In this document: piece after piece, positions 7,712 to 64,000 of the stretch
Layout: the number at the start of each line of letters is the position of its first letter
Position numbering within the stretch: position 1 is the stretch's first letter
NCBI RefSeq assembly: GCF_030684315.1
Contig: NC_081378.1
Coordinates: forward strand, 14,562,575-14,626,574
DNA: 64,000 bases
Direction of reading: 5' to 3'
Source of the DNA: Stegostoma tigrinum
Lineage: Eukaryota
Made by a program: the position numbers and the translations under genes
The notes under the pieces: generated by a model
What the model saw: the letters and a program-made list of their open reading frames with translations, nothing else
Databases searched by the model: none
Told to the model about the DNA's origin: nothing

Positions 7712-7816
7712 AAGGCCTGGCTGCATCTGTGAAGAAAAAAAATCAGAGTTAACATTTGGATCCGGTGACCCTTCCTCAGAACTCTTCCCTGAGGAAGGGT
7801 CACCAGACCTGAAACG
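7712..7816. mobile_element. Penelope pLTR hairpin fragment (family 2) with hammerhead-like motif
   Basis: ggtgacccttcctcag (7764-7779) is inverted against ctgaggaagggtcacc (7789-7804); + strand reads CTGAGGA a GGGTC acca GACCT GAAAC, then is truncated. Confidence 0.75.
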
Positions 7817-8419
7817 CGCGAGGTGCCAAGCAGTCTGCTCAGAGCTAGTAAAGTAAACAGCTTCTGAGCTTTGGTATTTTTTATGTTGGAATAATAGAAG
7901 CAGCCTGAATCGGTGGGGTCAAACTCCCATAGAACCAAGATTTTTTTAGCCTTCTGCAGGTGTTTGGGTCTTGAAGCTGAATGTGGAAGCTCTTATTCCT
8001 AGCTCTGTTATGGCTAAAGGCTGGGCTTCTCTTCTTGCTGCTAGAATTGCATATGAGACAATCAATTTTACTGACTTTGCTTTTGCCATGAGTGTGTTTA
8101 TGGGATGTTACTATTTTGGAACAGTTACTTAGTTAATTTAAAAAAAAATCTTGTTTGGTTAAGTGTTTCAAGAGTTACAGTTAAGCTAATTCTTTCTGTA
8201 TTTTAAGTGTAGTGTAAAAATACTGGCTTTTCAATTTTGATGCAAGCGTTAAACTTTCCATCGAAGCGAGCTGAAATTTGTTTTGGCATGGTAAATAAGG
8301 ATTAGCATTTTAAAAATGTTATTGAGGACTGCGATGAAACAGATATGATCTTAGGCTCGCAGAATTGACCATGCCTGTGCTGAATGCGTTTCAATGTAGA
8401 TAGGTGCAGCAGGTTGAGT

Positions 8420-9241
8420 CAAGTGTTAGGCATTTAATTTTCAAATTAAGGTCAGTACATTTTGAGTATAGGAGTTGGTTGGGGGCGGGGGGGGGCGGTG
8501 GTGTTCATGTTGTGGCTGTACAGGACTTTGCTTCTGATATATTTGGAATAATGCATTCAATTATGGTTTCCCTGCTCTATGACAAATGTTATGAAACTTG
8601 AAACGGTTCAGCAAAGATTTACAAGGATATTGCCAGGGTTGCATGCTACCCAGACCCATTACCCAAACCCACCTCCATGCACACACGGCTGAACACTATG
8701 GCCAGTCCACTTAGCCTGCACATATTTGGACTATAAGAGGAAACCAAAGCACCTGAGGAAATCCTCGCAGACATGGGAGAACGTGCAAACTCCACACAGA
8801 CCGTCACCCGAGAGGGTATCAAATGCAGGCCCATGGCACTGTGAGGCAACAGAGCTAACCACTGAGCCACCATGCTGCCCTTCCCTGGAGCATCAGAGGC
8901 TGGGTGGTGACCTTTTCAAGGTTTATTAAATCATGAAGTGCACGGATAAAGTGAATAGCCATGGTCTTATACCCAGGTTTAAGGAGAGGTGGGAAAAAAT
9001 TAAAAGGGACCTCTGGGGCTACCTTTTCACACAGGGTAATTCATGCATGGACTGAGCTGCCAGAGGGAAGTGATGGAGGCTGGTACAATGACAAGATTGA
9101 AAAGGCATCTAGATGGGTGCATGAATAGGAAAGGTTTAGAGGGATATAGGCCAAATGCTGGCAAATGGGACTGGATTGACTTAGGATATTTGGATGCATT
9201 GGATTGGAGGGTCTGTTTCCATGCTCTACATCTGTGACTCT
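8420..9241 (+). mobile_element. CR1 (HER1-like) 3' fragment interrupted by a SINE
   Basis: ttgagtataggagttgg...aaagatttacaaggatattgccaggg, then ctggagcatcagaggctg...gggtctgtttccatgctctacatctgtgactct. Confidence 0.8.
8647..8880 (-). mobile_element. HE1-type SINE (3'-truncated) nested in CR1
   Basis: Minus strand gggcagcatggtggctcagtggttagctctgttgcctcacagtgcc... with V-domain. Confidence 0.88.
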
Positions 9242-9912
9242 AGGTGGTAGAGCAAAGAAATGTCTGGGTACAGAAAAATACTTCATGAAAATTAGAAATG
9301 CAATTCAATAAGAAACCATAAAATGTGCAAACCAAATATTCTGGAAGAAATATAATTGACAAGAGAAATTTCATTCACAGTATTTGTGAAAAAAGCCACA
9401 TTTTGTTAGGTTTTTTTAAATGCTCCTCAGTACAATTTGTAGGAATACTAGCATAGAGGAAAACGAGGATTTATACTGTTTGTGGGACAGTGCTGATTGG
9501 TATAGGCATTGCATTGGAGAATATACTAGTTCAACTAGAAGGACAAAGACAACAGATGCGTGGGACCATAGGGACCATAATTCCTTCAAAGCAATACCAT
9601 TGGTTTGGGACAATATCATCTTTCCTTCACTGTTGCTCAGCCAAAATCCTGGCATTCACTTCCAGACAGCATTGTGGTTGTCTATACTCCAAGGACTGCA
9701 GCTGTTCAAGAAAACAGTGGACATCTATGCTCTTGAGCGCAATTTGCATGGGACAGTAAATGCTGGCCGAGTCAGTGACATGCAAGCTTTTACATTTAAA
9801 ATCTGTATGGAAATGTGTTTAAAGCACACTTAGTGTATATGCACATTCATTTTTGCAAGATGAAGAATGGGAGATACTGTGCTGATAGCAGAACAGGAAG
9901 AGTATTGTTATC

Positions 9913-10286
9913 AGGCCCGAAAGGACAGGTTTTGTGCTCCTACGTTGGTCTTTGGCCTGCTGTGTTCATCCAGCTGCACACTTTGTTATCTCGGATTCTC
10001 CAGCATCTGCAGTTCCCATTATCTCTGATCACAATTTTAACCTCCATTGCGAAGCCTCTTCCAGGGATGCCTAAACTGAAGAACTTACCCTCCTCCCTCC
10101 GGACCAACCTCAGGGGATCTCTCTCCCACTGCAACTCTCTTCAGTCTGCCTCTCCCTCTCTCCCTATTTATTTCATAGCCCTCTCCCCATCCCCCTTTTC
10201 TGATTAACAGTCTAAGCACAAAACATCAGCTTTTGTGCTCCTAAGATGCTGCTTGGCTTGCTGTGTTCATCCAGCTCCACACTTTG
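9913..10286 (+). mobile_element. Penelope-like element remnant: two direct partial pLTRs (family 1) separated by post-pLTR sequence
   Basis: ttttgtgctcc...tggcctgctgtgttcatccagct..acactttg occurs at about 9930-9985 and 10231-10286; both hammerhead motifs are decayed. Confidence 0.8.
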
Positions 10287-12753
10287 GAGCACCAGCCAAT
10301 TTACCTTGATAACCAAGTTTCTGGACATTTGCTAAAATGTTTTCTAATGATTTCTATTGTGCAGCTGCCAGCATTGTTAAAGTAGGTCCACATGAAACTT
10401 GGAGACAATAAAAATAATAAGTACTGTTTTGAAAAGTGTCAGGAACAATGAGACCTACATGAATATATGTGTAAGTCAATAAAACTGATAGGCACGTCAA
10501 GAGATCTGCTTCTACAAGGATAGTTTCTAGGTTTCTTCAGTGATGTGGCCTGTATATGAACAGAGGTGACACTGAATTTGTATAGGACATTGGTTATACC
10601 TCGGTTGAATTTTTTTTAAACAGCTCTGGAGCAGCACACTTGAGGAAAAATTTCAATGCATAGGAGAGTGCAGAAGAGGTAGCCAAGAATGCTGCTCAGG
10701 ATGACATCCATCAGTCATGAGGAAAGATTTGAATAACTTGCCCAGTTCAATAAAGAGCTTATTTCTTTGAAATACCAACTTCGTTTCTCTCTGCGCAGGC
10801 CTTGCTGACTATTTCCAGCATTTTTTTTATTTTGGATGATGGCAAAGCTCAAAGTTTTGATCCCCATCTAATCCAATTTATTAATCCTTTTGAAATGTAA
10901 CTCCTGGAGATATGATTTCATTTGCCATCAGGTATATCAGGCAAACAGGCTAACAGCTGGCAAGCAATTCAGTCTGCGGTTTGTCTACCCAGTGTTTGAG
11001 AATAGTCAGTTAATTAAGGGATAAGTTTATGACAGGCAATTGTTGGATCATTAAGTGGACCTACTTTAACAATGCTGGCCGCTGCACAATTGGCAAATAA
11101 TTCCTTCCAACGTTGGAGGACGCAGAAGGGACTCTAACATTCATCATGTGTAAACTGTTGTTCAAGCTTGAGTTTAAGGAAGAAAAAATAATCAGTGTAA
11201 AAATCAGTTCTGTGCTTTTTTGGAAAGAACTGTTGAAATCCAAGCGGTCTGGTATAATACAAAATGATTATTGGAAAGTTGTCATGATGTAGATGAGTCT
11301 GATTAGTCCACCAAAGATAAACAAAAAAGTTTGAAATAGTTTTGAATTGTGTTTTGCAAAAGGACTGAGATATGACCAACCCTTGTTTATCCTCCCTTTA
11401 TCAACTTAGAACCAATTCTTCTATTCTGACTTTCAGTAAGTGTTAAATGGAATATTCTTCCCAGTCTACTGGAAGCTTTTGGCATATGCTATGTCTTGAG
11501 AAACCAAGCAAGTTACAATCCCATGGGCCTGTGACATGATGACGGTTCATGTGAATGACTTGAGTGAACTGGCCAGGCGCATCTTGTTTATCCTTTTTGA
11601 TTTATCCTTTCATTGTCTGTGTGTGCCTTTGTGTGAGTTGGTGGGAGAGCATTGAAGGAGGTTAGGGTTTGACTCCTTGACATTTAGATTTATCTTGTGA
11701 TTTAACTTCTGTTCTGTTAAGTTACTAATAATGCAGTAGTTTTGTTAATTCTTTTGTTTTTAAGCTGTAAACTTGGTGTCTGGTATTTGTTATTCAAAAA
11801 GTATGGTTAGGAAATATTAGAGTCACTTTTTATTGTTGCAAGTACTGGGACAGGTAGGCTGATTTTTAGTTTTGGCTACCTGTCTTTATGGCATAAACAC
11901 TGTTTCAACAAGAATCTCAAGCATGTACAGTACTTTATTTTCAACTTGAAGAACTTTCCTGTTTTTTTTTATTTCCAGGTATAGAAGTTAACCTTCAAAT
12001 TCAGTTGCTAGTTCCAAAAGAAAAACTGTCTTGCATGGTATTCTAATTTGATAAATTGCTGTTACTGCATCAGAAAGCAGCTCCGAAAAGGTGCAGAATT
12101 TTGGGTAATATGAGAGTCCACCTGTTGAAATGAGTTTTTTTTTTTGCGTTGTGCTTAGAATTGATCTGTTTTGAGGCCCAAACAGGGACATGCTTGAAGA
12201 GAACTTTGTTCTTGTGCACACTTGCTTATTTTGCACTTTGTTGTACTTCCACTGTTGCCTCACAGCTAATGATGAAACTGGAAGTGGAGGGAGGAAATCT
12301 TGTCTGCTTTTAATTAAGGCAGATACCTTTTGTTTTAGCGCAACTGTTCTTTGTATTTGTGAAGTAAGTTTCGTACAGTATTCACAAAGTCGCTTCTTTA
12401 TTGCACAGTGCTTTAAGTGGAATTTGCCACAAAAAGTGTTCAGAAATGAAGTCAATTAAGTTCTATTGCAGACATGTACACCGTCAGCATTTTAATATGT
12501 TCTGAGTGAAATAGATGGGGAAACAAAACTGTATTTTGGTACTTCTGGAATTTATGCATTTTTATGAACAACGTGTTTTTTTTCTTGGAAAATTACCTTT
12601 GCCAAAAAGAATACAGGTAACTTGTGTAAGCACCTGAAGATTGCAAATAATACTTTGTGGATTGCATCCTTGAATTTCCTTTTTTTCCCCACTTAAATTA
12701 ATTTGAGTAATTTTTTACTTGTGAAACGGTAATTCCGACATTGTCGTCATAAC

Positions 12754-13002
12754 GAAAACAGAGTTACTGTAAAAGCTCAGCAGGTCTGGCAGCATCTGTG
12801 GAGGCGAAAACTGAGTTTATGTTTCTGGTCCGGTGACCCTTCCCCAGAATGGAGTTCAGAACCCAGTTCTGAGTAAGGGTCACCGGACCCGAAACGTTAA
12901 CTCAGTTTTCGCCTCCACGGATGCTACCAGACCTGCTGAGCTTTTCCAGTAACTTTGTTTTCGTTCCTGATTTACAGCATCCACAGTTCTCCTTGGTTTT
13001 TA
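12754..13002. mobile_element. Penelope pLTR hairpin insertion (family 2) with 10-bp TSD
   Basis: Arms about 12751-12850 and 12866-12965 are reverse complements; tail 12966-13002; flanks tcgtcataac (12744-12753) and tcttcataac (13003-13012). Confidence 0.85.
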
Positions 13003-13512
13003 TCTTCATAACATTGCCCGAATAATTTTATGACTTCATGAACTGAGGCATTTCTAGTTAAAATTTTGGCATGGAGACCTGTGGTGAGATTTGTTCCAGG
13101 ATCACAATTCCATTCTGAGAAAATGAAATTTTAACAATGAACTGTGGATCCCGGACATCAGAAACAAAAACAGAAATAGCTGGGAAAGCTCAGGTCTGAT
13201 ACAGAGAAAGCAGAGTAAATGTTTCAGATCCAAGGTCTTGTTGAAATTAATACCTGTGCACTGTCAAGATCTGTGTTTGCTTTGTTGGGTATTCCTCAGG
13301 ACGACCAGCAACACATGCAGAATATAAACTTCTCTCTTTTGGCTGTCTTGGTTTAATGATCCTTAAGAGGATTACTCTCTCACTTTCTGCGTCTTCTGTC
13401 ACAAATGAACTATTCACTTAACTTCAAAATGCCTGAAATGAGTCAAAAAATTATCAGCACGCTGGTACAAAGACTGAACTCCACTCTTGTAATGTTTGTT
13501 CTTCTAAATATG

Positions 13513-24424: not shown

Positions 24425-25030
24425 ATTGTGGTATTCCCTGAAGCAAGGACTGTTGCTTTTTGTTCTGTGATCTATAAATGACTTGAATCCTGGAATGCCA
24501 AATAAAATTACCCAATTTTTATAGCAAAATTGAAGGTGTTCCAAATGGAGTGATATCAGTTGCCTGTATCATGATGCAGATTGGGTAGCAGAATCCATAG
24601 ATTATCAGCAGACAGAGAAGCACAACGTGATCCATTTGGTCAAATGAAATGGTTCATGGCAATGTCAACTTAATAGCAAGTTCAAGAGTGTGTATTGTAA
24701 CAGTTGGTAGGCATGAAGTGGAGGTGTCGATGTTGGACTTGGGTGAACAAGTCTGAAGTCATAGAACACCAGATGAAAGTCCCACAGGTTTACTTGAAAT
24801 CAGTCTTTTGGAATGTAGCCTCTTTGTCAGGTCATGACCTTGCCTCATGAAGGGCTATGCTTTGAAAGTTTGTGTGTTCAAATTAATCTGTTGGACTATA
24901 ACCTGGTCGTGTGGTGTAAATTCTGACTTGGAACAGAGACCTGGGATTCCAGCTGTAGTCATCTTTTGAAGGTGACGAGATATATTAAGAGACTGATCAG
25001 CCAGGTAATTGGTTTCTTTTGGCTTCAATA
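24425..25030 (+). mobile_element. Old CR1 RT fragment interrupted by a Penelope hairpin
   Basis: gtggtattccctgaagc...atctataaatgacttg, resuming at gaacagagacctggg (24931). Confidence 0.55.
24721..24930. mobile_element. Penelope pLTR hairpin (family 3), decayed
   Basis: gaagtcatagaacaccagatgaaagtcccacaggtttacttgaaat is the imperfect reverse complement of ttcaaattaatctgttggactataacctggtcgtgtggtgtaaattc; centre has a degraded ctcatgaagggctatgctttgaaag motif. Confidence 0.65.
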
Positions 25031-27149: not shown

Positions 27150-28125
27150 TTTATTTGCCCATTCTGCATAGAATTGTTTCTGGGCTGTCCTCCTTCTTTC
27201 TAGGGAAAAAACAACTAGAAACATGCTCATCCTTTACCACCCTTCTCTGCCCAGTCAAGCACATTCTCACTTTGAACAAATTCTCTAACTCCTTTTACTT
27301 ACGTCAGCTCAAAGGTGTGTTCATGGAAGCAGTATATGTGGAAAACTTTGCTCCAGTCCAACCCGAGCCTCCACTCTCCAGACATACCTTCCACATGAAG
27401 CAATGACTTATCTGCACTTAACTCGATCTAGTTGACTGTATGTTTGCTGTGTGTGGTGTGGGTTACTTTGCATCGGGAAAATGCAATGCAGACTGGCTAG
27501 TTCCTTTGCAGACCACTTTCATTTCATCCTCATTGACCTGAGCTTCCTGTTGTCTGCCATTTGAACACACTATATTGTGTTCTCTGGCCAGTGTCTTAAC
27601 TCTGGCTTGGAGCAGTGCTCCAGCGAAGTTTAGTGCAGGCTGGAAGAACAGCTTTTTGTTTTCCACTTGGAGAACCTGCAGCCTTCTGGATGGAGTATTG
27701 CATTTAATAATTTTAGGACTTCAGCACCTTCTCTCATGTCGCTAAACCAAACTCCATACACCAAATCTGTTGGCAGAAGAGGTGCTACCGCAAATAACCC
27801 AATGTCAGCCAGTTATGGCCCCCATGAGCAGCTGCTGACTCTCTCCAGGCTGACCTTTCCAGAATTCCCAATTGTTCCTTTTTCCTTCTTGCTCTCTGGG
27901 CACCACTTCCACTGAACATTTACTTCTCCCTCCCTTGGCCCATCTGACAGCTCCAGCATAAACACCAACCTTTTCCGAGGTAAAGACAGTTCCAAAGAAG
28001 TGTCACTGAACTGAAATGTTAACTCTGCTGTTCTGTGCACAGATGTTGCCAGACCTGCTGAGTTTCTCCAGCAATTTCTGTTTTTGTTTGTGATTTCCAG
28101 CATCTGCTGTGCTGTTCTTTTTGGC
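27150..28125 (+). mobile_element. Old Penelope-like element fragment (RT piece, GIY-YIG, pLTR)
   Basis: HILTLNKFSNSFYLRQLKGVFM (PLE RT), ...HTFHMKQ and gggttactttgcatcgggaaaatgc (GIY-YIG region), ending in pLTR ctgaaatgttaactctg...gacctgctgagtttctccagc. Confidence 0.7.
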
Positions 28126-28307
28126 TTGGTGCATTTAGCAGATGGTTTCAAATCCCACAATGGCATTTGATATAAATTTTTGGAATTCAAAGCAAGTCTC
28201 AATCATGATCGTGAAACTTGGTGATTATTGTTGAATGACATTGGTGAATGCATGAGTTTTTAGTAAAGGAAATCTTACATGTGTCTCCAATTCCACAGTA
28301 GTGGCCT

Positions 28308-29356
28308 GAAGCGAAGAGTAGTGATAAACGGGTCCCTTTCGGAATGGCAGGCAGTGACCAGTGGGGTACCACAAGGTTCGGTGCTGGGACCGCAGCTGTT
28401 TACGATATATATTAATGATATAGACAAAGGCATTAAAAGTAATATTACCAAACTTGCTGATGACACAAAGTTGGGTGGCAGTGTGAAATGTGAAGAGGAT
28501 GTTATTGGAATACAAGGTGACTTGGACAGGCTAGGTGAGTGGACGGATGCATGGCAGATGCAGTTTAATGTGGATAAATGTGCGGTTATCCACTTTGGCA
28601 AGAACAGGAAGGCAGATTACTATCTCAATGGAGTCAAGTTAGGTAAAGGGGAAGCACAACGAGATCTAGGTGTTCTTGTACATCAGTCAATGAAAGCAAG
28701 CATGCAGGTACAGCAGGCAGTGAAGAAAGCTAATAGCACGCTGGCCTTCATAACAAGGAATTGAGTATAGGAGCAAAGAGGTCCTTCTGCAGCTGTACAA
28801 GGCCCTGGTGAGACCGCACCTGGAGTATTGTATGCAGTTTTGGTCTCCAAACTCTTGCTATTGAGGGAGCGCAGCGTAGGTTCACGAGGTCATTTCCCGG
28901 AATGGTGGGACTATCATATGTTTAAAGATTGGAGCGACTGGGCTTGTATACAGTTGAGTTTAGAAGGATGAGAGGGGACCTGATTGAGGCGTATAAGATT
29001 ATTAAGGGATTGGACAATCTGGAGGCAGGCAGCATGTTTCTGCTGATGGGTGAGTCCAGGACCAGAGGACACAGTTTAAAAATAAGGGTAGGCCATTTAG
29101 AACAGAGTTGAGGAAAAGCTTCTTCACCCAGAGAGTGGTGGATATCTGGAATACTCTGCCCCAGAAGGCAGTGGAGGCCACCTCTCTGGATACTTTCAAG
29201 AAAGAGATGGATAGAGCTCTTAAAGATAGTGGAATCAAGGGTTATGGGGATAAGGCAGGAAGAGGATATTGATTGTGGATGATCAGCCATGATCATAATG
29301 AATGGTGGTGCTGGCTCGAAGGGCCGAATGGCCTACTCCAGCACCTAATTGTCTGT
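28308..29356 (+). mobile_element. Young CR1 3' fragment (RT C-half and 3' UTR)
   Basis: RVVINGSLSEWQAVTSGVPQGSVLGPQLFTIYINDID...LADDTKLGG...WQMQFNVDKC; tail ggccgaatggcctactccagcacctaattgtc. Confidence 0.93.
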
Positions 29357-30730
29357 TGATGCAACCATCTTCTGAAATGGCCCAGCAAGCCACTATAAAT
29401 GCTGGCCTTAACGATGGTGGTCAAGTCCCAGTAAAGAATAGAGAAAAGAATTAAGGCCACTGAGGCAGGTTATTAACGTGTCAGGGAATCTGGGATTTAA
29501 GGTGGTGACTGGGAAATGGAGTTGAGGACCACAGATTAGCACTGATTTACCTTTTTTAGCTGTTGGAGTAGGCTTCAGGGTTTGTGTGAGAGAAGCATTT
29601 TAGGGGAACCGAGGCCCCCCCTTCAACAGTACAAAATCTATCTTTATTGGAACTCCTTTACTATGTGTGGGAGAGGTTAGAGACCATTCTGAATCTAGCT
29701 TTCACATGGTGGCTTGCTGTCTTAAATAGAGCTCAGATCGGAGGTCAGTGACACTGTTCCTTTCTCAATAAAGTACAGGGTATTTATATATCCATTGCTG
29801 ATCTTAGTGCAGAAGATAAAGTAGCTAATTTCTACTAATTGTTATAATATTTGTAATGTCAGCTCTAAGGTAAAATTTTTTTTATTTGTAAATTTGTTAA
29901 AATTTTATGCTATGAATCTGTGACAAAGCTTAACAATTTCAGGAACAGCTTCCCTCTTATCCGACTTGCAAAGTGACAATTTGTTGTTCTCTTGGTTATG
30001 GTAACTCTGGTTTAAACTTATTTCTGCGCCACCGCCCCCACACCCGAACCCCGACCCTTGCCAGGTTATTTGTCATTTGTCTCTTGGTTCTTGTATGACG
30101 TTATTTTGTTTGTACCTTCTTTTATTTTTGTTGTTCTAGTCCTGCAGATGGAGAAAAAATTGTGTTTATGCAAACTAGTCTCTGCATGCAAGGCTAACTG
30201 CTTTCAGAAATTTAATTCCCCATTATCTAATAAATTCAAACTTTTATTCCTGTACCAGTTTGTACTCTAATATGTAATTATAATTATTTGAAAACCTCTT
30301 CTCAAGTAGGTGAAGCTTTCCCTTTCTATTTCATATAAAAATCAGAAATCTCAAATCAGATGACTTTCATCTGAGCTGTCTTTTCAGAGCCTGACTGTTT
30401 GCGTTCTAGTCCTGTCTTACTGAGACTTGGGCATTATGTTGTCTCGCTGTGAAGGTCAGGATTTGAGTTATATGAAGTGCTTCACTTAAAATTTCCTTTG
30501 TCTGTGGGTTTATGAACTTGCTCCTCGAGCTGCCTTGTTCTCGTTCATCGCCGTGCCAGGTGTCATCGTCAGTGGAGCTTCCAATGAAGTGATGTTATTC
30601 TACTTTGCTCAACATTTCTGCTGTCTTGTCTGTTGTGGTCTGTCAAGTAACAACCTATCCATCAATGGGCTGAGTTCCAGTATTTTCGGTTCAGTCAAAG
30701 TAACAACAAAACAGAACTAGTTTCAGACAG

Positions 30731-44689: not shown

Positions 44690-44853
44690 CAAGAGAGCCA
44701 GAACTGCAGATGCTGGAGTCAGAGACAAAACTGTGTGGAGCTGGAGGAACACAGTGGGTCAGGCAGCAGCAGAGGAGTAGGCAAGTCGACCCAAAACACG
44801 GACTTTCCTACTCTGCCTGACCTGTGTTCCTCCAGCTCCACATGATGTGTCTA
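44690..44853. mobile_element. Penelope pLTR hairpin (another family), decayed
   Basis: tgtggagctggaggaacacag...ggtcaggcag is inverted against ctgcctgacctgtgttcctccagctccaca; tail gaactgcagatgctggag on the left. Confidence 0.7.
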
Positions 44854-45855
44854 GACGGAGACAACATCTCTGGTCTTTTTTTTTTGTCCAATCACTGCCT
44901 GTGATTTTTGGAATGTGAAACCACCTTCTGGCAGTTAACCTGAAGGCCTCCCCTTCACCTGATCACCGATCATTCATTCCCTTTGTTCACTTGCCTTCCT
45001 GCCACCCCAACCCCACTCCACCCCATGCCCTTGCTCACTGAGATTAGCCATTTAGCCAGTTTCTCTGTCCATGGATTTATTTACATTCAGAGTTTACATC
45101 AGGGAAAAAGTCATTTTTGCCTGTTGCGCCATCTTGACTCCAGTGAATATACATCAGTCAAATTATTCATGTCAGAAATGTACTGTTCTTTTATTAAAAA
45201 GTACAGGATTTATTAATTTAAATTTGAGACCATTAAAATGCTGGTTATTTGGTTGATAAGCAACTCAATCTGCATTTTTCTTTTGACATCATCAGAACCA
45301 CTTTCCTTAATTACTGTCTTACTGTTAATCACATAAATTGAAATATAAAACTACTATCTGAGAATATACAATTTTAACCGTTGGTCCTCAGCTAGTGGTA
45401 TGAACGTGGACACTGCAAAGTGTCACAACAAGTGAAATGATCGTCGCTTGAAGGGTCTAATGAGGTGCAATCAGTTAGTGAACTGCTTTGTTATTTTTAA
45501 AATGGTAGTAGCTACTGCATGTGACACTGTTTTCTCATTTGTTAAGGCAATTGCCCATAACACAGCAGTACATGTTAACTTTTTGTTACATGGGAAATTC
45601 AGTAATTTATGACTGGATGAGCTGTCTGGAAGGAATGGGTAAATAAGATGTCGAGTGCACTCTACAAAGTGAGCGAAGAAAGAACATTATGTTTTGCTAA
45701 TTTTTATGTTGTTCTTGCCTGTTGAACTTGGAGAAAGTTCCTTTTTTTTCCGTTCCTTTCCTTGCCCCGCCGTCTTCTCTCCACCCCATTGAGTGCAGTT
45801 TTTGCTGGTGATATGCAACTGTGTCTCAAACCTAAGTTGTGTTTCCAAATAAATT

Positions 45856-46050
45856 CAGAAACTGCTGGGCCCATTGAGCATGCCTGGCAGCATCTGTGGA
45901 GAAAAAAGCAGAATTAACATCAAGTTGTGACCCTTCTTCAGAATTTCACTTGAATCGAGTTTCTCTCCACAGATGCTGCCTGACCTACTAAGTTTCTCTG
46001 TCAATTTGTTTTTATTCTCAGATTTCCAGCATCCATTGTTCTTTGTTTCA
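45856..46050. mobile_element. Old Penelope pLTR hairpin (family 2-like)
   Basis: ggcagcatctgtggaga is inverted against tctccacagatgctgcc; central gtgacccttcttcagaa reads ttctgaagaagggtcac on the minus strand. Confidence 0.7.
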
Positions 46051-50019: not shown

Positions 50020-52610
50020 ATGAAGTAGGACTGAAACTAAACTGCATTTATTCCAATGCAAGAGGCCTAACAGGTAAGGCAGATAAACTAGGAGCATGGA
50101 TAGGAACATGGGACTGGGATATCATAGTGATTACAGAGATGTGGCTCAGGGGTGGACAGGACTGGCAGATTCATGTGCCGGGTATGGATGCTATAGGAAG
50201 GATGGTAATAGAGGAGGGGGAGTGGATTTCTTGATTAACAATATGGCTGTACTTGGGGCATTCCTGGGAATATGTCCAAGGAACTTATTTAGATGGAACT
50301 GAGCAATAATAAAAGGGTGACCATCTTGGTGGGATTGTATTATAGACATGCCAGCAGTCAGTAGGAAATTGAGAAGCATCTGTATAAGGAGATTGCGGTC
50401 ATCTGTAAGAATAATAGGATGGTTTTTGTCAGGCATTTTAATTGTCTAAACATACACTAGGATTGCCATAGTATGAAGGACTTGGATGGAGAGGAATCTC
50501 GGTGTGTATGGGAAAATTTTCTGATTCAATATCTGGATGTACCTACTAAAGAAGGTGCAAAACTTAATCTAATCTTGGAAAATAAGACAGGGTGTCAGTA
50601 GGGAGAGCACTTTGGGGCCAGTGACCGTAATTCTGTTAATCTTAAAACAGTGATGGAAAAGGATAACAAAGTGTGAAGCTGGATGAACACAGCAGGCCAA
50701 GCAACATCTCGGGAGCACAAAAGCTGATGTTTCGGGCCTAGTCCCTTCATCAGAGAGGGGGATGGGGAGAGGGTTCTGGAATAAATAGGGAGAGAGGGGG
50801 AGGCAGACCAAAGATGCAGAGGAGAGTATAGGTAGGCAGGGGATAGGTCAGCCCAGGGAAGATGGACAGTTCAAGGAGGTGGGATGAGGTTAGTAGGTAG
50901 GAAATGGAGGTGTGGCTTGAGGTGGGGAAGGGATGGGTGAGAGGAAGAACAGGTTAGGGAGGCGGAGACAGGCTGGGCTGGTTTTGTGATGCAATGGCGG
51001 GGAAGAGGATGAACTGGGCTGGGGGAAGAGGAGATTTTGAAGCTTGTGAAGTCCACAACGATACCATTGGGCTGCAGGGTTCCCAAGCAGAATGAGTTGC
51101 TGTTCCTGCAAACTTCCGGTGGCATCATTGTGGCACTGCAGGAAACCCATGATGGACATGTCGTGTCAGGAATGGGAGAGGGAGTTAAAATGGTTCACGA
51201 CTGGGAGGTGCAGTTATTGCGAACCGAGCAGAGGTGTTCTGCAAAACGGTCCCCAACCCTCTGCTTGGTTTCCCCAATGTAGAGGAAGCCACACCAGGTA
51301 CAATGGATTGCAAGTTGTTGAAGGAAATCCTGAGGGACAGGATTTACATGTATTTAGAAAGGAAAGGACTGATAAAGAATAGTCAGCATGGCTTTGTGTG
51401 TGGAAAATTTGTCTCGCTATTTTGACTGAGTTTTAGTGGTGGACATGATCTATATGGACTTCAGGGAGGTGTTCGACAAGGTTTTTGACGGTTGACTGGT
51501 AAGCGAGGTTAGATCATCTAGAATACAGGGAGAACTAGTCATTTGGAGGTAGAACTGGCGAGAAGATAGGAGACAGAAGATGGTCGTGTCGAGTTGCTTT
51601 TCAGGCTAGAGGCCTGTGACCAGCGGTCTGCCACAAGGATCAGTGCTGGAACCACTGCCTTTTGTCATTTAATATAAATGATTTAGATGTGAACACAGGA
51701 GGTATGGTTAGTAAGTTTGCACATGACACAAAATAGGTGGTGCAGTGGACCGTGAAGAAGGTTACTGCTGAGTACAATGGGACATTAATCAGATGGGCCA
51801 GTGAACCGAAGAGTGGAAGATGGAGCTTAATTTAGATAAATGTGACCTGCTACGTTTTGGGAAGGCGAGTCAGTGCCGGACTTATACACTTAAAGGTAAG
51901 GGCCTGGGGAAGCATTGCTGAACGAACAAAATGCAGGTTCATGGTTCCTTGAGGGCGGAGTCCCAGGTATACCAAACAGTGAAGAAGGCGTTGGGTAGGC
52001 TTGCTGTTATTGGTCAGTGCATTGAGTATAGGAGTTGGGAAGTCATTGTGGCTGTAGAGAACATTGGTTAGGCCACTTTTGGAACACCGTGTGCCGTTCT
52101 GGTCTCCCTACTATAGTAATGATGTTATTAAACTTGAAAGGGTTAAGAAAAGACTTAGAAGGATATTGCCAGCGTTGGAGGGTTTCAGCTACGGGGGAGG
52201 CTGAAAAGGCTGAGTTTTTTTAGCCACGAGCATCACAGGTGTAGGGGTGACCTTTATTGAGGTTCATAAAATAGTGAGGGGCAGGAGATAGGCTGAATAG
52301 CCAAGATCTTTTCCCCAGGGTAGGGAGGGTGCAAAACTGGAGGCTATAGGCTTAAGGTCAGAGGGAAAAATTTAAAAGGGACCCAACTTTTTCACAGAGT
52401 GGTATGTGTATAGAATGAGTTGCTAGGGGCAATGGTGGAGGCTGGTACAATTACAGCCTTTAAAAGGCATTTGGATGGGCATACAAATGGGTGGGTTTAG
52501 AGGGATATGGACCAAATGCTGGAAAACGGGCTAGATTAATAGAGAATACCTTGTTGGTAGTCATGAGTTGGATTGAAGGGTCCGTATCCTTGCTGTACAG
52601 CTCTGTGGCT
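50020..52610 (+). mobile_element. CR1 ORF2 and 3' UTR, interrupted by a Penelope insertion
   Basis: APE part 50030-50665 (aactgcatttattccaatgcaagaggcc...), RT part 51309-52610 (KLLKEILRDRIYMYLERKGLIKNSQHGF...). Confidence 0.88.
50662..51308 (-). mobile_element. Penelope family-1 3' fragment: GIY-YIG endonuclease and pLTR
   Basis: Minus strand encodes IHCTWCGFLYIGETKQRVGDRFAEH...MSIMGFLQCHNDAT...LGTLQPNGIVVDFTSFKIS, then the pLTR with ctgatgaagggactaggcccgaaacatcag at 50724-50755. Confidence 0.92.
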
Positions 52611-53201
52611 GATGAAAGGTTATTTGTCACAGGAGGTTTGGAATACCTGTAGTCATCTGTACCAACAAACATTTATTGAGGTATTTTCTGATAAAATGGC
52701 CCCTTCCAGCTGTTTAGACTCCATAAGTGGAGCATCAAATGTGCAGGAATTATCAATGCTGAAATTAAGTGAAAATGCCTCATGGGTTGCCTCTCATTTC
52801 TCCATTTTAGAGAAATGGATAAGACAAAAGTTGACCAAGTTGTGTATCTCCTGTGGAAGGATGGCTGTTGATGGGCTCAGTTTTCATGTATGCTTTGTCA
52901 CCAGTTTTTTTTTTACTCTTCTGTCTGAATCTTCTGGCATTTTTATGATTTCAATTTACTTGTTCTGCAGTTTTTCAGCTTCTATTTTGTTGCGTGCATC
53001 TCTCTGGCATACAAATGTGGTAAAGATTGGCTGGTATATTGTAGTATCTAAGGAGCTGTATCACCTTGGATTTTGTACAAGAATTTTGTGTTGGACTATG
53101 TTGAGTTGCAGTGAAGAACGTCACCATTATTGTGGAGTTAGTGGGTCTGCAGCTTCTTCAGTTTGTCCACATTTTTTTAAATGCAGGAGTCCAGTAATTT
53201 C

Positions 53202-53388
53202 TGAGATAATGGGAACTGCAGATGCTGGAGAATTCCAAGATAATAAAATGTGAGGCTGGATGAACACAGCAGGCCAAGCAGCATTTCAGATGAAGCTCTC
53301 TGATGAAGGGTCTAGGCCCGAAACGTCAGCTTTTGTGCTCCTGAGATGCTGCTTGGCCTGCTGTGTTCATCCAGCCTCACATTTTATT
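53202..53388. mobile_element. 187-bp Penelope family-1 hairpin mini-insertion with 13-bp TSD
   Basis: gtccagtaatttc at 53189-53201 and 53389-53401; 48-bp arms 53242-53289 and 53341-53388. Confidence 0.92.
53293..53333 (+). ncRNA. Minimal type-I hammerhead ribozyme motif, intact core
   Basis: ct-CTGATGA-a-GGGTctagGCCC-GAAA-C-GTC-ag; predicted cleavage after C53327. Activity not demonstrated. Confidence 0.75.
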
Positions 53389-54411
53389 GTCCAGTAATTT
53401 CAGTTGGGTCAACCTGCTTCTTCATAAGCTGTGTTTTAACCTTTTGTCTGTTAAGGTGTAAAGATGCTGTCATAATCCATGTGTTAACCACAAAATGTGC
53501 CACGTGAGGCTTGGATTGTTGCTTTCAGATGTAACAACTTTTGCTGGCAATGCCATTATAATTGTTACCAAGCAGATTCTCTCTCTTGCCCTTAAAATTT
53601 AACTTTAGAAGTGTATGGAGTCTGATTTCTTCAGAACTGAATTAATGTGGGATATTTGAACTTTAACTTTTTTCATGAATTCCTTTTCACTTACGCCAAT
53701 GCTTATTTTCCTCTCTATTTAAGAGCTGAGAGCCATTGATGGGTTTCTTGGAGAATATATCCACCACAAAAAAAAAATTGTCATTGTAGACCTTATTGCT
53801 TCTCTACCCAGTTCTGACTTGCCCCATGGTGACATTGGGTATTTTGGAACACATCACTGAACCACCCAACCAGCATCCGTTGGGCCATTAAGACCATCCA
53901 AGCTGCAGCTGTGGCGCTACCCAAAAATGACTTCGAGGATTGGTTGTTGTCTACGAATTAAATTTGAAGCTGGGCACAAATATTTTCACTTATCCACTGA
54001 CAAGGCCATTGTTTGGCTCTGTAATTACATATAAACTGAAAAAGTATTATCAGCTTGCTGTACATAATTTCACAATGAATTGTATCTATTTGCTTGTATC
54101 AACTTTGATTTAGGCTCCATTCTACATCAATGTGGATTCTTCAATTTCTAGTTGAGAAGCCATCTCTCACTTGCCTGGCCTGTGCACTAGACAGGAGTGC
54201 CCTGGAGTGGGTATTCTAAAATCAGTCAGCCAGAAATAACAACTCATAAACCCTTGAATACTCTGAGCAGCAATCCATTTGACAGTTGCAAACACCATTC
54301 ATCCACTGCTGGACTGCCAATTCCAGGCAAATAATTTTCATCTAAAGAAGCTCCAAAAAGTGAAAATCAAGTTATTTTGTTTTATTTAATCAACTTGTTT
54401 TGTTTTAACAG

Positions 54412-55107: not shown

Positions 55108-55922
55108 AACATAGAACATTACAGCACAGTACAGGCCCTTCGGCCCTCGATGTCATACCGATCTCAAGCCCATCTAACCTACACTATTCCATGTACGTCC
55201 ATATGCTTGTCCAATGACGACTTAAATGTACCTAAAGTTGGCGAATCTACTACCGTTGCAGGCAAAGCATTCCATTCCCTTACTACTCTGAGTGAAGAAA
55301 CTACCTCTGACATCTGTCCTATATCTTTCACCCTTCAATTTAAAGCTATGCCCCCTCGTGCTCGCCGTCACCATCCTAGGAAAAAGGCTCTCCCTATCTA
55401 ACCCTCTGATTATTTTATATGTTTCAATTAAGTCACCTCAACCTTCTTCTCTCCAATGAAAACAGCCTCGAGTCCCTCAGCCTTTCCTCGTAAGACCTTC
55501 CCTCCATACCAGGCAACATCCTAGTAAATCTCTTCTGCACCCTTTCCAAAGCTTCCACATCCTCCTTTATAATGCGGTGACCAGAACTGTACACAATACT
55601 GCAAGTGTGGCTGCACCAGAGTTTCGTACAGTTTCACCATAACCTCTTGGTTCCAGAACTCGATCCCTCTATTAATAAAAGCTAAAACACTGTATGCCTT
55701 CTTAACAGCCCTGTCAACCTGGGTGGTAACTTTCAAGGATCTGTGTACATGGACACCGAGATCTCTCTGCTCATCTACACTACTGAGAATCTTACCATTA
55801 GCCCAGTACTTTGCCTTCCGGTTACTCCTACCAAAGTGCATCACCTCACACTTGTCTGCATTAAACTCCATCTGCCACCTCTCAGCCCAGCTCTGCAGCT
55901 TATCTATGTCTCTCTGCAACCT
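55108..55922 (-). mobile_element. Young CR1 3' fragment, same subfamily as 4375-7053
   Basis: RLQRDIDKLQSWAERWQMEFNADKCEVMHFGRSN...; possible TSD ttgattt at 55101-55107 and 55925-55931. Confidence 0.93.
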
Positions 55923-56018
55923 AGTTGATTTCTCCAACTTGACATCTTGAGTTGCAGCATGGGACTCTTAGTCTCCATCCCTTGATATCTGTTCAAGTTC
56001 TCCAAGTCCCTAAATTCA

Positions 56019-59370: not shown

Positions 59371-60580
59371 GGGTAAGCAGGTAGCTGTGGGAGTCGGTGG
59401 GCTTGAAATGCACATTGGTTTATAGGTGGTTGCCTGAGATGAGACAAAGGTCGAGGAAGGTGAGAGATGTGTTGGTCGAGCCCACCGACTCCAACAGCTG
59501 CCTGGAATACGCCTCTTCCCACCCACCTTCCTGCATCCCCTATTCCCAATTCTTTTGCTTCCACCACATTTGCTCCCAGGATGAGGCTAACAACTCCCGT
59601 ACATCCCAGACGTCCTTGTTCTTCTTCAAGGACTGCAACTCCTCTTACCGCTCCGTACCCCCCCCCCCCCCCCCCCCGCGGTGGTCGAGAATGCCCTCGA
59701 CCGGGTCTCCCACGTTTCCTGCACCTTATCCCTCACACACTTCCCTCCGACACTTCCGCCATCTACAATCCGACCCCACCACTAAAGACATTTTTCCAAC
59801 CCCACCCTTGTCTGCCTTCCAGAGACCACTCTCTCCGCGACTCCCTTGTCCACTCCACACTCCCCTCCAACCCCACCACACCTGGCACTTAGACCTGCAA
59901 CCGCAGGAAGTGCTACACCTGCCCCCATAACACCTCCCTCACCCGCGTCCCAAGCCCCAAGATGACTTTGCACATCAAGCAGATGTTCACCTGCACATCT
60001 GCCAATATGGTATACTGCATCCACTGTACCCGGTGTGGCTCCCTCTACAATGGGGAAACCAAGCAGAGGCTTGGGGGCCGCTTTGCAGAACACCCACGCT
60101 CAGTTCACACTAAACACCTGCGCCTCCCAGTCGCGAACCATTTCAGCCCCCCCTCCCATTCCTTAGACGACATGTCCATCCTGGATCTCCTGCTGTGCCA
60201 TAATGATGCCACCCGAAGGTTGCAAGCACAGCAACTCATAGTCCCCTTGGGAGCCCTGCAGCCCAATGGTATCAATGTGGATTTCACCAGCTTTAAAATC
60301 TCCCCTCCTCCCCCCCCCCCCCCCCCCACCGCATCCCAAAACCAGCCCAGCTCGTCCCAGCCTGCCTAACCTGTTCTTCCTCTCAACTATCCCCTCCTCA
60401 CCCCTCAAGCCGCAACTCCATTTCCTACCTAGTAACCTCATCCCGGCCCCTTGTCCAGCCTCCCTGGACTGACCTAACCCCTCCCTACCTCCCCACCTAT
60501 ACTCTCCTCTCCACCTATCTTCTCCTCCTATTCATCTTCGGTCCGTCTCCCCCCGTCTCCCCATTTATTTCAAAATCCTC
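59371..60580 (+). mobile_element. Penelope family-1 element 3' part (RT thumb, linker, GIY-YIG, partial pLTR) with inverted 5' segment
   Basis: PTDSNSCLEYASSHPPSCIPYSQF; CNRRKCYTCP; FTCTSANMVYCIHCTRCGSLYNGETKQRLGGRFAEH...PVANHF...LGALQPNGINVDF. Confidence 0.93.
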
Positions 60581-61371
60581 TTGTCAAAGCCCTTTTGTCC
60601 TTAAAATCTTAAGTCTTACTCCTTCTGGCATCATCTATTTAAGGTGTTACTTCACACGTGTGGAATTGGCTAAGTTCACTAATGATTGTCACACCAAGTC
60701 AGAAATGTTTGTGAGCAAGTTTGTCATGTGGCATGGAATGATTCAGGAGTAGACTTTGATTTCACCACCAACACTTGTGGAGCTAACAGGTTAACTGTTT
60801 TCTCTTGGTTAATGACTTTATTCACTTGAGTAATAAATTCATTTGTCATAGGTGTGCTGTGTCATGGTGAAATGATTCAAGTAATTGCATTATTAACTGT
60901 AATGGCAATAATTGTGAAAGTAAATTTTACGTTCAGATATAACTTGTATAGTTCTGCAAGTTGATGAGTTCACCACATTATGCCAGCTGTATTGATTTTT
61001 CATGCAGTTGTAGAAGGAAGTTTAAAATTAATTTTTCTAATAAGCATTGCTCTCCAAATATGCATTTTCATACTCTTGAAGCTACAGAATTTATCTGCTA
61101 AAGGGTCTCCTGTCTACCTCTGTCATTGAGTTCAAATAATAGGTCTGTTTTAACCCATTTATTAAAACTGCAAATGGACACTGGGCAGAGGATTTCTATT
61201 TGATCATCATCTTTTCAGAAAATCTTCTCTTGCAGTGTCCAGATTGATGACCGTGTTCATCATGTTTGTAGCAAAAAATAGCATGGGTTGGATAATGGCA
61301 AATAGAAACTGGCTGTTCATACTTTGTTAACAACTAGCTTATTTATTAATTTTGCGTTGACTTTTGTCTAG

Positions 61372-62357: not shown

Positions 62358-62673
62358 TTAGATTAGATTCCCTACAGTGTGCAAACAGGCCATTCAGCCC
62401 AACAAGTCCACACCACCCCTTAAAGCATCCAACGAAGCCCCATCCCCTTATAGCCCACACACCCCAGAACGCTATGGGCAATTTAGCATGGCCGATCCAC
62501 CTAACCTGCACATCTTTGGAGTGTGGAAGAAAACCTGAGGACCTGGAGGAAACCCATGCAGACACAGGGACAATGTGCAAACTCCACACAGACAGTCGCC
62601 CGAGGCTGGAATTGAAGTTGGGTCCCTGGCGCTGTGAAGCTGCAGTGCTAACCACTGAGCCACTGTGCTGCCC
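62358..62673 (-). mobile_element. HE1-type SINE, near full length
   Basis: Minus strand gggcagcacagtggctcagtggttagcactgcagcttcacagcgccagggacccaacttcaattcc...gggctgaatggcctgtttgcacactgtagggaatctaatctaa. Confidence 0.92.
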
Positions 62674-63536
62674 TTAAATCTCTTTGCTCCTTCACAAGCA
62701 CTGCAAATGAAAAAGGCTGCCTCAAAAGCTCAATTTGTTTACATGTATACTGGGTGCCTGTGACTCTTGTGTTTTAGGTTGCTCACACAAAGCAATGGGT
62801 AAAGCTCAGTCTGGGGAAATGAATAACAGTTCATGGAGACTCCATTCAAGATGGTTGTAGAGGAGCAGGTAGCATTTGAGCTCCTGAGCCCAGGCTTCAT
62901 CCACTTTTCTTTTCTTCCTTTTTATCTTTTGCTTCAGTTTTTCATGTAAACTGACCTTGTTATTAAGAACGGTGGTGTTGGTGGTGGCAATATGGGTCAA
63001 GCACGGACATATGACGAGCTTTTGGATTCCCTGCAGTGGAGGTGAACTTGGGCCTAGTGGCCCAGCCCAAGACCCAGTAGTGTTGCTGTTTGCATTGGTG
63101 AAGTTGGAGCACAGCACAGACTCTAGTCAGTGGTGATGGGGTTGAGTTTTGGCCTGGTGCCGCACCAGTGGCATCAGTGGTGGTGGAATTGGCGTGATCA
63201 GCCCAGCAAGGAGTCATAGTGGTAATGTGGCTATTCTGTTTCAATGGCAGCTGTGTGGTGAAGGAACTCAAGGCAGGCCAACTCCTTTTACCTTTTTATG
63301 TGTATTTTGTTACAAATACATTGAAAAGTATATAGTGTCGCCACTCTCCAGCACCATCTTGAAACATGGAAAATAAAGGCAGAAAAGAAAGAAATAGTCT
63401 AACTCAGCTTGAAAGCTATGTCATTGTCCGAGATCTCCCACCCTGATGTGAAGACCAACCTAAACACCAAGCAATATAATAAAATGTGAGGCTGGACGAA
63501 CACAGCAGGCCAAGCACCATCTCAGGAGCACAAAAG

Positions 63537-63568
63537 CTGACGTTTCGGGCCTAGACCCTTCATCAGAG
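63537..63568 (-). ncRNA. Minimal hammerhead ribozyme motif, intact core (minus strand)
   Basis: Reverse complement reads ct-CTGATGA-a-gggtctaggccc-GAAA-C-GTC-ag. Confidence 0.7.
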
Positions 63569-63935
63569 AGGGGGATGGGGGGAGGGAACTGGAATAAATA
63601 GGGAGAGAGGGGGAGGCGGACCGAAGATGGAGAGTAAAGAAGATAGGTGGAGAGAGTGTAGGTGGGGAGGTAGGGAGGGGATAGGTCAGTCCAGGGAAGA
63701 CGGACAGGTCAAGGAGGTGGGATGATTCACCCATCCCTTCCTCCCACCCCAAGCCGCACCCCCCGCTACCTACTAACCTCATCCCACCTCCTTGACCTGT
63801 CCGTCTTCCCTGGACTGACCTATCCCCTCCCTACCTCCCCACCTATACTCTCTCCACCTATCTTCTTTACTCTCCATCTTCGGTCCGCCTCCCCCTCTCT
63901 CCCTATTAATTCCAGTTCCCTCCCCCCATCCCCCT

Positions 63936-63967
63936 CTCTGATGAAGGGTCTAGGCCCGAAACGTCAG
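63936..63967 (+). ncRNA. Minimal hammerhead ribozyme motif, intact core (plus strand)
   Basis: CTGATGA 63938-63944, stem II 63946-63957, GAAA 63958-63961, C-GTC 63962-63965. Confidence 0.7.
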
Positions 63968-64000
63968 CTTTTGTGCTCCTGAGATGCTGCTTGGCCTGCT

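Follow-up and report, generated by a model that had tools for sequence, protein, structure and literature searches.

The EXOC4 (Sec8) introns of Stegostoma tigrinum raise the question of whether a short, protein-free hairpin that carries a hammerhead ribozyme can propagate as a retroelement in its own right, or whether such hairpins are the abortive insertions of larger elements. The host gene was recognized by a coding exon in an open stretch at 3779–4192 on the plus strand (Pfam Sec8_N, E 1.3e-19). Within the 64-kb window, that is, the whole stretch of DNA that was analysed, the introns hold 13 pieces of Penelope-like elements (PLEs) that add up to about 5 kb, or roughly 8% of the window, and 7 of these 13 are head-to-head hairpins. 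The original prediction had listed nine short insertions and three coding fragments in EXOC4, and all were found where it had placed them. Seven of the nine insertions have the hairpin form, but the 9.9 kb insertion is a direct tandem and the 30.7 kb insertion contains an inverted piece that does not overlap its partner.

Family B supplied the hairpins at 7710–7816, with a shortened right arm and decayed cores at 7779 (minus) and 7789 (plus); at 12751–13005, with 107-nt arms of 89% identity, a tail of about 40 nt at the right and a core at 12869–12898 (plus) that has one mismatch; and at 45852–46045, where the left arm has a decayed core without a tail and the right arm a tail without a core. 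The sliding inverted-repeat scan missed the 7.7 kb hairpin, whose support includes the hammerhead scan and the covariance model; its two arms begin near −4 and −1 (counting the C of CTGANGA as 0), and neither tail nor TSD was seen. The family-C hairpin at 24713–24930 has arms that are about 69% alike, a decayed core at 24844 (plus) and a left extension of about 35 nt that is probably the tail, as read without a family reference. A subfamily related to family A is represented at 44700–44852, with a tail at the left and no CTGANGA core, each arm beginning inside or past stem II. Family A itself formed the hairpin at 53202–53388, flanked by a 13-bp TSD (53189–53201 and 53389–53401), whose left arm covers +41 to +126 with a tail and no core and whose right arm covers −4 to +91 with a perfect core at 53300–53327 (plus). 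The young family-A hairpin at 63476–64000 has 222-nt arms of 99% identity that start at −159 and −211, with perfect cores at 63566–63539 (minus) and 63938–63965 (plus); its right end lies beyond the window.

The other pieces show what the hairpins were broken from. At 13139–13230 (minus) lies a decayed family-B pLTR end with its tail, and at 9913–10287 (plus) a direct partial tandem of family A, in which a pLTR end, the tail and about 110 nt beyond lead into a second pLTR end with a period of about 290 nt, both cores being decayed or cut. The piece at 30726–31020 joins a minus-strand family-A end (element −109 to +91) to a short inverted GIY-YIG piece (−349 to −267); it is an inversion of the twin-priming type, with arms that do not overlap. 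A longer end resembling family B at 27330–28125 (plus) runs from a GIY-YIG remnant through the pLTR and a decayed hammerhead (27982–28030, E 0.1) to the tail, and a single family-A arm at 50662–51308 (minus) has a GIY-YIG remnant, pLTR, a near-intact core (50753, minus) and a tail-less end at 50662. The longest family-A piece, 59378–60581 (plus), includes the end of the RT, a C-x4-C-x2-C linker, GIY-YIG and pLTR, and is lost just before the hammerhead; at its 5' end stands a short inverted RT piece (59378–59476, minus). Ends have been lost from the 7.7, 30.7 and 59.4 kb pieces.

In these longer copies, the same pLTR that builds the hairpins continues into GIY-YIG and RT coding sequence. The fragments at 27.3–27.75, 51.0–51.3 and 59.4–60.4 kb match shark proteins (tblastn E 8e-11 to 3e-81), the last corresponding to residues 135–468 of P0001, a protein with a weak, below-cut-off Pfam match to RVT_1 followed by GIY-YIG above the cut-off. 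The order of RT and then a C-terminal GIY-YIG endonuclease at 59.4–60.4 kb is that of EN+ PLEs, as is the way GIY-YIG runs on into pLTR and a type-I hammerhead core at 50.7 and 27.3–28.1 kb, and as is the layout of the hairpins, with an inverted 5'-truncated pLTR and a one-sided tail of 30–40 bp in 5 of 7. PMC8557442 gives a CX2-5CxxC linker before the endonuclease as a motif of the Neptune clade, and the C-x4-C-x2-C in the 59.9 kb translation is of this kind, a lead by which family A may be assigned to Neptune. Families A and B are themselves homologous (about 72–76% over 60–100 nt, tail included), so the hammerhead-hairpin design that they share reflects common descent. The hairpins are the broken-off, heavily 5'-truncated ends of protein-coding PLEs.

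The ribozyme had been predicted for every piece. A strict minimal-hammerhead scan found three perfect cores (53300 plus, 63566 minus and 63938 plus) and one with a single mismatch, while 10 dinucleotide shuffles produced no perfect core and zero or one with a single mismatch. At two mismatches, there were 10 in the window and 2–7 per shuffle, so the decayed tier taken alone is close to chance. A covariance model trained on 12 motifs returned 25 matches, 10 of them at E<0.001, all within PLE pieces and 6 of the 10 outside the training set. The motif has the conserved core, stems I and II and the palindromic stem III of a minimal type-I hammerhead, and the PLE origin and the prior knowledge of this motif class, as originally stated, are both supported. 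The co-variation of stem I also held up, with two-sided changes in all four pairs across the 12 motifs and a score of 0.360 against 0.217 ± 0.036, reached in none of 500 shuffles; stem II provides no independent test, since 8 of the 12 rows were chosen by a pattern that fixes it. The claim of a hammerhead in each piece stands for the three perfect cores and in decayed form for others, but the model detected none at 44.7 or 59.4 kb, the 9.9 kb core is at noise level (E 5.2), and the 24.8 kb family has GAAAGTT instead of GAAAC-GT. None of the 19 Rfam matches to E 10 was to a hammerhead family, only hairpin-shaped miRNA matches below gathering scores, and scans with the family A and B motif patterns found none in viral contigs or prokaryote genomes; a metagenome scan gave 44 loci, none from the families of the window.

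Folding predictions bear on whether the hairpins could use this ribozyme. For monomer and dimer alike, folding predicts a ground state other than the active hammerhead shape; in family A, stem I is only 2 bp long and a competing CUGAUG/CGUCAG pairing forms around stem II. Taking the hammerhead shape would cost a predicted 69.5 kcal/mol inside the 63.5 kb hairpin and 41.2 inside that at 12.8 kb. In the symmetric hairpins, the ribozyme is therefore predicted to be buried by the antisense arm and inactive. The 53.2 kb core, which lies in the loop, is no more buried than the isolated motif (8.7 against 8.5 kcal/mol). The hammerhead is cargo inherited with the pLTR.

The details of the arms bear on how each hairpin arose. 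A one-sided tail of 30–40 nt is present in 5 of 7 hairpins, absent at 7.7 kb, and the 63.5 kb hairpin leaves the window. The accompanying expectation of a TSD fared less well, as it is clear in only 1 of 11 elements tested (13 bp at 53.2 kb, where the longest of 2000 random pairs was 10 bp) and plausible in one other (7 bp at 12.8 kb; at least 7 bp in 62 of 2000 random pairs), while the other nine were at chance level in the same comparison. Within a locus, an arm usually finds its best match in its partner (98, 97, 90 and 92% at 63.5, 53.2, 12.8 and 44.7 kb). The two arms at 53.2 kb, like those at 45.9 kb, each include sequence absent from the partner, so neither was copied from the other and the two were likely primed separately. 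We consider it probable, with some confidence, that every hairpin is a one-time product of its insertion site, where each of the two cut target strands primed a short cDNA. By analogy with in-vitro work on the anole element (PMC11167929), the PLE protein would nick the AT-rich target on both of its strands, and synthesis would begin from one 3' end at the tail site and from its counterpart at the tail-less site. After an early halt, the two cDNAs would be linked through a little filler or microhomology, and a TSD would remain. Priming by the second strand deeper within the RNA could give inverted pieces that are short and do not overlap, such as those at 30.7 and 59.4 kb.

A single cDNA might instead have primed itself at a palindrome, with the near-palindromic hammerhead supplying the fold-back, each hairpin again being formed once. 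Such self-priming has been proposed for inverted PLE junctions in PMC3846280, the pairing of CUGAUG with CGUCAG around stem II of family A would assist it, and as far as they are visible the 12.8, 24.8 and 63.5 kb hairpins fit. A copy of this kind cannot exceed its first arm, however, and the private sequence in both arms at 53.2 and 45.9 kb conflicts with that; the exact tail-less end and the inverted pieces without overlap at 30.7 and 59.4 kb are also left unexplained, so we regard this origin as unlikely.

The original prediction had offered the hairpin as a possible non-autonomous, ribozyme-bearing retroelement, which would require that at least some hairpins, most plausibly of family B or C, be transcribed whole by read-through, copied in trans by PLE protein and inserted as units. 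There is precedent, in that a pLTR by itself is enough to direct insertion in trans (PMC3846280) and putatively non-autonomous PLE derivatives are known, such as MRC1 (PMC8557442) and retrozymes. Families B and C also turn round at nearly one place (7.7, 12.8, 45.9 and 24.8 kb), as the arms of a propagating unit would. Its signature, one internal junction with many flanks, was shared by none of the seven hairpins in the window: all seven central junctions differ, the best 41-nt match between two loci being 20 of 41 with four gaps, in a small sample of at most three hairpins per family. In addition, the RT would have to cross 90–220 bp of RNA duplex, with the ribozyme of the symmetric hairpins predicted to be buried. 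The tail-less end also occurs in non-hairpin copies (50.7 and 30.7 kb) and in thousands of contigs with unrelated flanks, so that no unit is needed to account for it.

Sequencing reads extended the comparison for family A, using one arm (window positions 50620–51330). Matching contigs numbered 144,591 in one organism-A contig run of 20.5 million and 147,637 in another of 23.7 million, with counting incomplete in both; in 3,797 and 3,902 contigs, respectively, the fixed tail-less end at 50662 bordered on varied A-rich flanks. Fold-back joints in the contig runs were low, with a summed depth of 10–92 from one to three contigs, against 8–29 for ordinary pieces and bin sums in the millions. Of 257 joints above threshold, 7 among the best 15 were opposite-strand; the top joint among those 15 had 148 raw reads where the depth was about 2,660, and many low-share joints, with no dominant fold-back junction, were seen among these best 15. 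Six opposite-strand positions recurred at 63–148 reads each in about 1% of the sole raw run, which was bisulfite-converted; this recurrence would suit propagation as units, and such counts imply that each position pair stands for at least hundreds of loci. We read these joints as pools of different junctions, since their ends adjoin private mismatches of the reference copy or convertible C's, and for the same reason the reading as shared junctions was set aside, as was the idea that the joint at 50725 begins where the ribozyme cleaves (+28). A shared junction could be hidden by short contigs in such a high-copy repeat. The proposed comparison of junctions gave none shared in the window and no dominant joint in the family-A reads, where joints were pooled and the best 15 of 257 were listed. 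It is also a weaker test than was claimed, as a stereotyped stopping point yields near-identical junctions without propagation.

An unrelated PLE family in metagenome contigs was similar, with an inverted piece at 7 of 32 loci that reduce to five places with five different junctions: L033 and L044 are identical, and the junction common to L032 and L035 was discarded because 970 nt of flank are shared at 87%, making them one locus. With junctions that all differ, no dominant family-A joint and a ribozyme cost of 41–70 kcal/mol, propagation as units is quite unlikely and the claim of a non-autonomous element is not sustained, while the alternative that the original prediction offered, a stereotyped abortive insertion product, is supported. 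Formation after insertion, from two adjacent insertions or from a long element that lost the part between its inverted pLTRs, is highly improbable, even though PLEs insert beside earlier copies (PMC6765202) and ends are lost at 7.7, 30.7 and 59.4 kb, as a single 13-bp TSD encloses both 53.2 kb arms, the arms are closely matched within each locus and 5 of 7 hairpins have a tail on one side only.

Returning to separate priming of two short cDNAs, the points at which these stopped are of interest. Of 14 arm starts in three families, 6 precede the hammerhead core by no more than about 6 nt and 12 fall within about −17 to +45, in a continuum of truncation from +41 to about −1200. Such clustering suggests that something, be it the RNA 5' end, the ribozyme fold or cleavage, likely halts the cDNA there; by conjecture, the RNA would likely start in the pLTR just upstream, or the fold would stall the RT. 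Much more tentatively, and with considerable doubt, the hammerhead itself may set the stop, its fold at the base of stem I or its cleavage fixing the 5' end of the short cDNA, so that PLEs would mass-produce ribozyme-centred stumps.

Much of this architecture is familiar. EN+ PLE insertions with an inverted 5'-truncated pLTR, a 30–40 bp tail on one side and a TSD are described in PMC3846280 and the Fig. 2 legend of PMC8557442, and the shark pieces share with the published accounts the head-to-head repeat, the tail at one end, a TSD that is clear at 53.2 kb, strong 5' truncation, partial tandems and GIY-YIG behind RT. The suggestion of an architecture particular to this lineage therefore fails, given the published layout and the unrelated metagenome family that does likewise. 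Relative to the same accounts, the shark hairpins differ in being mostly of an extreme short form, with two pLTR ends only (107–525 bp), and in arm starts that cluster at the hammerhead. Metazoan PLE pLTR hammerheads, with dual minimal motifs on opposite strands 100–700 bp apart (PMC4209133), share the CUGANGA/GAAA core, the unpaired base before stem II, the short stem I, a palindromic loop-free stem III and the many families per genome (also in the review PMC6765202); family A departs from them in its 2-bp stem I and competing pairing, and the main text of PMC4209133 has no shark example. Non-LTR retrozymes (PMC7229834; bioRxiv 10.64898/2026.07.22.740005) are likewise protein-free, hammerhead-bearing, PLE-related and 150–450 bp long. 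Their units are arrayed head to tail, each with a complete hammerhead, and give rise to circular RNAs, whereas the shark pieces are head-to-head inversions; no such array, with the hammerhead complete in two or more successive units, was found. Only the direct pair at 9.9 kb resembles a retrozyme dimer, and it was rejected as one for want of intact cores; of the 2,605 loose ends in the family-A reads, the 24 that were listed do not include its junction, which is weak evidence.

For the mechanism, a close parallel is PAc (Poseidon) of Anolis, in which two internal RT start sites define the tail and tail-less ends in vitro, both target strands are cut and extended, targets are AT-rich and the hammerhead is dispensable for insertion (PMC11167929). 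The shark hairpins share the two kinds of end, the AT-rich targets and, as proposed here, the use of both strands, and they differ in the linker of family A, which is described for Neptune and not for Poseidon; hairpin insertions were not reconstituted in that study. From this analogy, twin priming by PLEs would also take place in vivo. The mostly open-access literature that was searched held nothing on shark PLE hairpins, PLE twin priming or truncation at PLE hammerheads. In L1 elements, twin priming from both target strands produces 5' inversions, and the inverted, non-overlapping pieces at 30.7 and 59.4 kb resemble these. Compared with L1, both PLE primers could use the RT start sites of the pLTR, so that the arms overlap and a hairpin results.

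On present evidence, the hairpins are an ordinary and known kind of insertion, and no new class of ribozyme or mobile element is called for. With about 10^5 contigs per run from one family, the genome offers a large natural collection of the junctions left by PLE insertion, and a catalogue of arm starts could separate twin priming from self-primed fold-back as well as test for a truncation point fixed by the hammerhead. If the ribozyme does set such stops, they would be a measurable genomic footprint of the PLE hammerhead, which might, for instance, curb full-length insertion.

EXOC4 is the gene that contains the window (Pfam Sec8_N match), and the transposon protein found there has its closest named relatives in two sharks, at 76–79% identity, which makes a shark the likely host. 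Self-comparison, inverted-repeat scans and reading of the sequence identified 13 pieces of Penelope-like elements (PLEs), amounting to 5,048 bases. Of nine short inverted or tandem insertions originally predicted, seven (7.7, 12.8, 24.8, 44.7, 45.9, 53.2 and 63.5 kb) are hairpins with two PLE terminal repeats (pLTRs) head to head, while self-comparison and sequence reading made the 9.9 kb locus a direct partial tandem and showed a non-overlapping inverted piece at the 30.7 kb locus. The predicted coding fragments at 27.2, 50.7 and 59.4 kb were confirmed by shark PLE-like proteins, which match pieces at 27.3, 50.7 and 59.4 kb plus an inverted piece at 30.9 kb; one of these proteins, P0001, has Pfam hits to reverse transcriptase (RT) and GIY-YIG. 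These matches bear out the proposed PLE origin, as does the published standard layout, which consists of inverted 5'-truncated pLTRs, mostly head to head, a 30–40 bp tail at one end and a target-site duplication (TSD) (PMC3846280, PMC8557442, PMC8969392). The hairpin features are real and of an already known kind: they are truncated PLE insertions that combine an inverted pLTR with a tail and an inherited minimal hammerhead, and they probably formed one at a time. Elsewhere in the window are four copies, 70–77% alike, of a dispersed repeat of SINE-like size (2375–2668, 8698–8882, 31293–31519, 62364–62675) and LINE-like RT fragments (4881–5624, 28267–28848, 41136–42097, 51312–52610, and 6235–7012 and 55151–55923, the last two oppositely oriented and sharing 91% identity across 785 nt). 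Two 36-nt inverted repeats (97%; 10356–10391 and 11055–11090), 663 nt apart and without a hammerhead, resemble the terminal inverted repeats of a small DNA transposon.

Metazoan pLTRs carry type-I hammerheads of a minimal form whose stem III is palindromic, mostly in dispersed truncated copies and including opposite-strand pairs 100–700 bp apart; their cleavage is weak, even as dimers (PMC4209133). A strict minimal-hammerhead scan of the window found three perfect cores, where 10 shuffles had 0, and one core that departs at a single base, where the shuffles had 0–1; allowing two mismatches gave 10 matches against 2–7. With a covariance model built from 12 motifs, 25 matches were counted up to E 10; all 10 at E <0.001 lie in PLE pieces, six of them outside the training rows. 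Weak matches lie at 27.98 kb (E 0.1), 12.81 kb (E 0.39) and 10.19 kb (E 5.2), and the pieces at 44.7 and 59.4 kb gave no match up to E 10. Stem I covaries among the 12 motifs, as claimed, while stem II pairing, claimed likewise, was already prescribed for 8 of the 12 rows by the pattern used to find them. Directly adjoining the 30.7 kb piece is a decayed stretch (30500–30720, minus strand), possibly a fourth PLE family, whose core-like CTGACGA...GAAC motif near 30572 has no match to the 12-motif model.

Among the window's terminal-repeat families (A, B and C), A and B are homologous in sequence across motif, pLTR end and tail, and the same hammerhead design occurs at 44 metagenome loci, many adjoining PLE-like coding sequence with roughly 37–56% identity to shark proteins. 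Because of this homology and recurrence, the shared design is, by sequence comparison, old and inherited, and not special to this lineage. The metagenome contigs (L001–L044) hold animal-type PLE ends and are evidently host DNA; L022, L034 and L041 are further hairpins of other families. At 53300–53327 and 63938–63965, the family-A core has a predicted rival 6-bp pairing with the 3' side of the motif, which may act as an intrinsic off state, and an ATG within the core opens a 13-codon frame.

Element positions are counted from the C of CTGANGA (0), and family A has its predicted cleavage site after +27. The 53.2 kb hairpin has a tail arm from +41 to +126 and a second arm from −4 to +91, both within a single 13-bp TSD; at 45.9 kb, the core is in one arm and the tail in the other. 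Since each arm has sequence absent from the other, neither was copied from its partner, which fits two-strand priming rather than simple snap-back and leaves the latter little chance of being the general route. For the anole PLE, both strands of the target are cut and extended by the element's protein, which uses two internal start sites that define the tail and inserts without need of hammerhead cleavage (PMC11167929). By this precedent, a hairpin would consist of two cDNAs, primed from the two cut target strands at two RT start sites, and if the second priming in this process were internal, it could yield short inverted pieces of internal sequence such as those at 30.7 and 59.4 kb. Of 11 elements tested for the predicted TSDs, the one at 53.2 kb has a clear repeat of 13 bp and the one at 12.8 kb a plausible repeat of 7 bp, the other nine being at chance level.

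The original prediction also held that the hairpins might propagate as non-autonomous ribozyme-bearing elements, with clustering of junctions as the check. No two of the window's seven junctions are alike (best 41-nt comparison 20/41 with four gaps); family-A hairpin arms start at −159/−211 and +41/−4, and longer copies at −109, about −555 and about −1200. A read test, on family A only, covered the single arm 50620–51330 in 4 of 23 listed runs. At least 144,591 and 147,637 records aligned from two contig runs of organism A, and a fixed tail-less end at 50662 occurred in at least 3,797 and 3,902 contigs, whose A-rich flanks are unrelated (agreement 0.41). Among the best 15 of 257 joints passing threshold, none was dominant (contig-run counts being lower bounds), though a shared junction may be present; seven joined opposite strands, their ends all falling from +1 to +57, the strongest listed having 148 raw reads against a depth of about 2,660, and in contigs such joints had a summed depth of 10–92 from 1–3 contigs. 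In favour of propagation, six joint positions had 63–148 reads each from about 1% of one run, and each therefore stands for many loci. However, their ends adjoin either private mismatches of the reference copy (50704, 50711 and 50742, with 50728 at a distance of three bases) or C's open to bisulfite conversion; each position is therefore probably a mixture of distinct junctions. One strand of the upstream part is rich in C, which restricts the junctions that bisulfite reads can show to the zone of these ends. In an unrelated metagenome PLE family, inverted pieces at 7 of 32 loci reduce to five places with five different junctions.

For the symmetric hairpins, folding predicts complete pairing of the sense hammerhead with the antisense arm and a cost of the active shape of 69.5 kcal/mol (63.5 kb) and 41.2 kcal/mol (12.8 kb). 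The 53.2 kb hammerhead sits in the loop, at a predicted 8.7 kcal/mol, no different from the family-A motif in isolation, where the core would pair with its own 3' side. These predicted costs make a ribozyme-driven life cycle unlikely and, with the differing junctions, render propagating hairpins highly improbable. An origin in later rearrangement is scarcely credible. In run X21, the hairpin-arm zone (50668–50739) is the one part where bisulfite reads cover the two strands evenly; speculatively, snap-back hairpins may resist conversion and bias methylation calls at these repeats, but selection by the identity filter explains it too.

The arm starts concentrate around the hammerhead. Six (53.2R, 12.8L, 12.8R, 7.7L, 7.7R and 45.9L; L and R, left and right arm) lie within about −6 to 0, and the pair at 24.8 kb lies within about −17. 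Four more (53.2L, 45.9R and the 44.7 kb pair) fall between about +13 and +45, which leaves the 63.5 kb pair as the sole arms with a far-upstream start. In families B and C, where starts were judged against a single decayed long copy or no reference at all, they hold to within a few bases only. Truncation to a short length is in any case the most frequent outcome, and arms that are very short go undetected. Even so, the tight group suggests a real stop, at an RNA 5' end or the stem I base, with cleavage as a candidate for the downstream group. PLE transcription starts inside the upstream pLTR (PMC6765202). In the read test, summed contig depth is 21 million at +62..+85 and 9 million at +14..+37. 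A stop at the hammerhead would fit this drop, but mismatches to the reference, and related families with the same 3' end, confound it. Starts in the unrelated outside family are widely spread, which argues against a universal rule, and a hammerhead stop for reverse transcription remains doubtful. A literature search of limited coverage turned up no account of arm starts clustering at a PLE hammerhead. Go-back joints in contig runs X1 (50725 to 50672) and X3 (50726 to 50680) restart near the predicted cleavage site; being two among the best 12 of 144 rows, they are only a hint.

Retrozymes are head-to-tail tandems (PMC7229834; bioRxiv 10.64898/2026.07.22.740005). At 9913–10287, a direct pLTR pair lies about 290 nt apart, with the sequence just past the tail joined to −73 of the pLTR that follows. 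Recurrence of this join across the genome would make it an internally deleted, retrozyme-sized PLE derivative.
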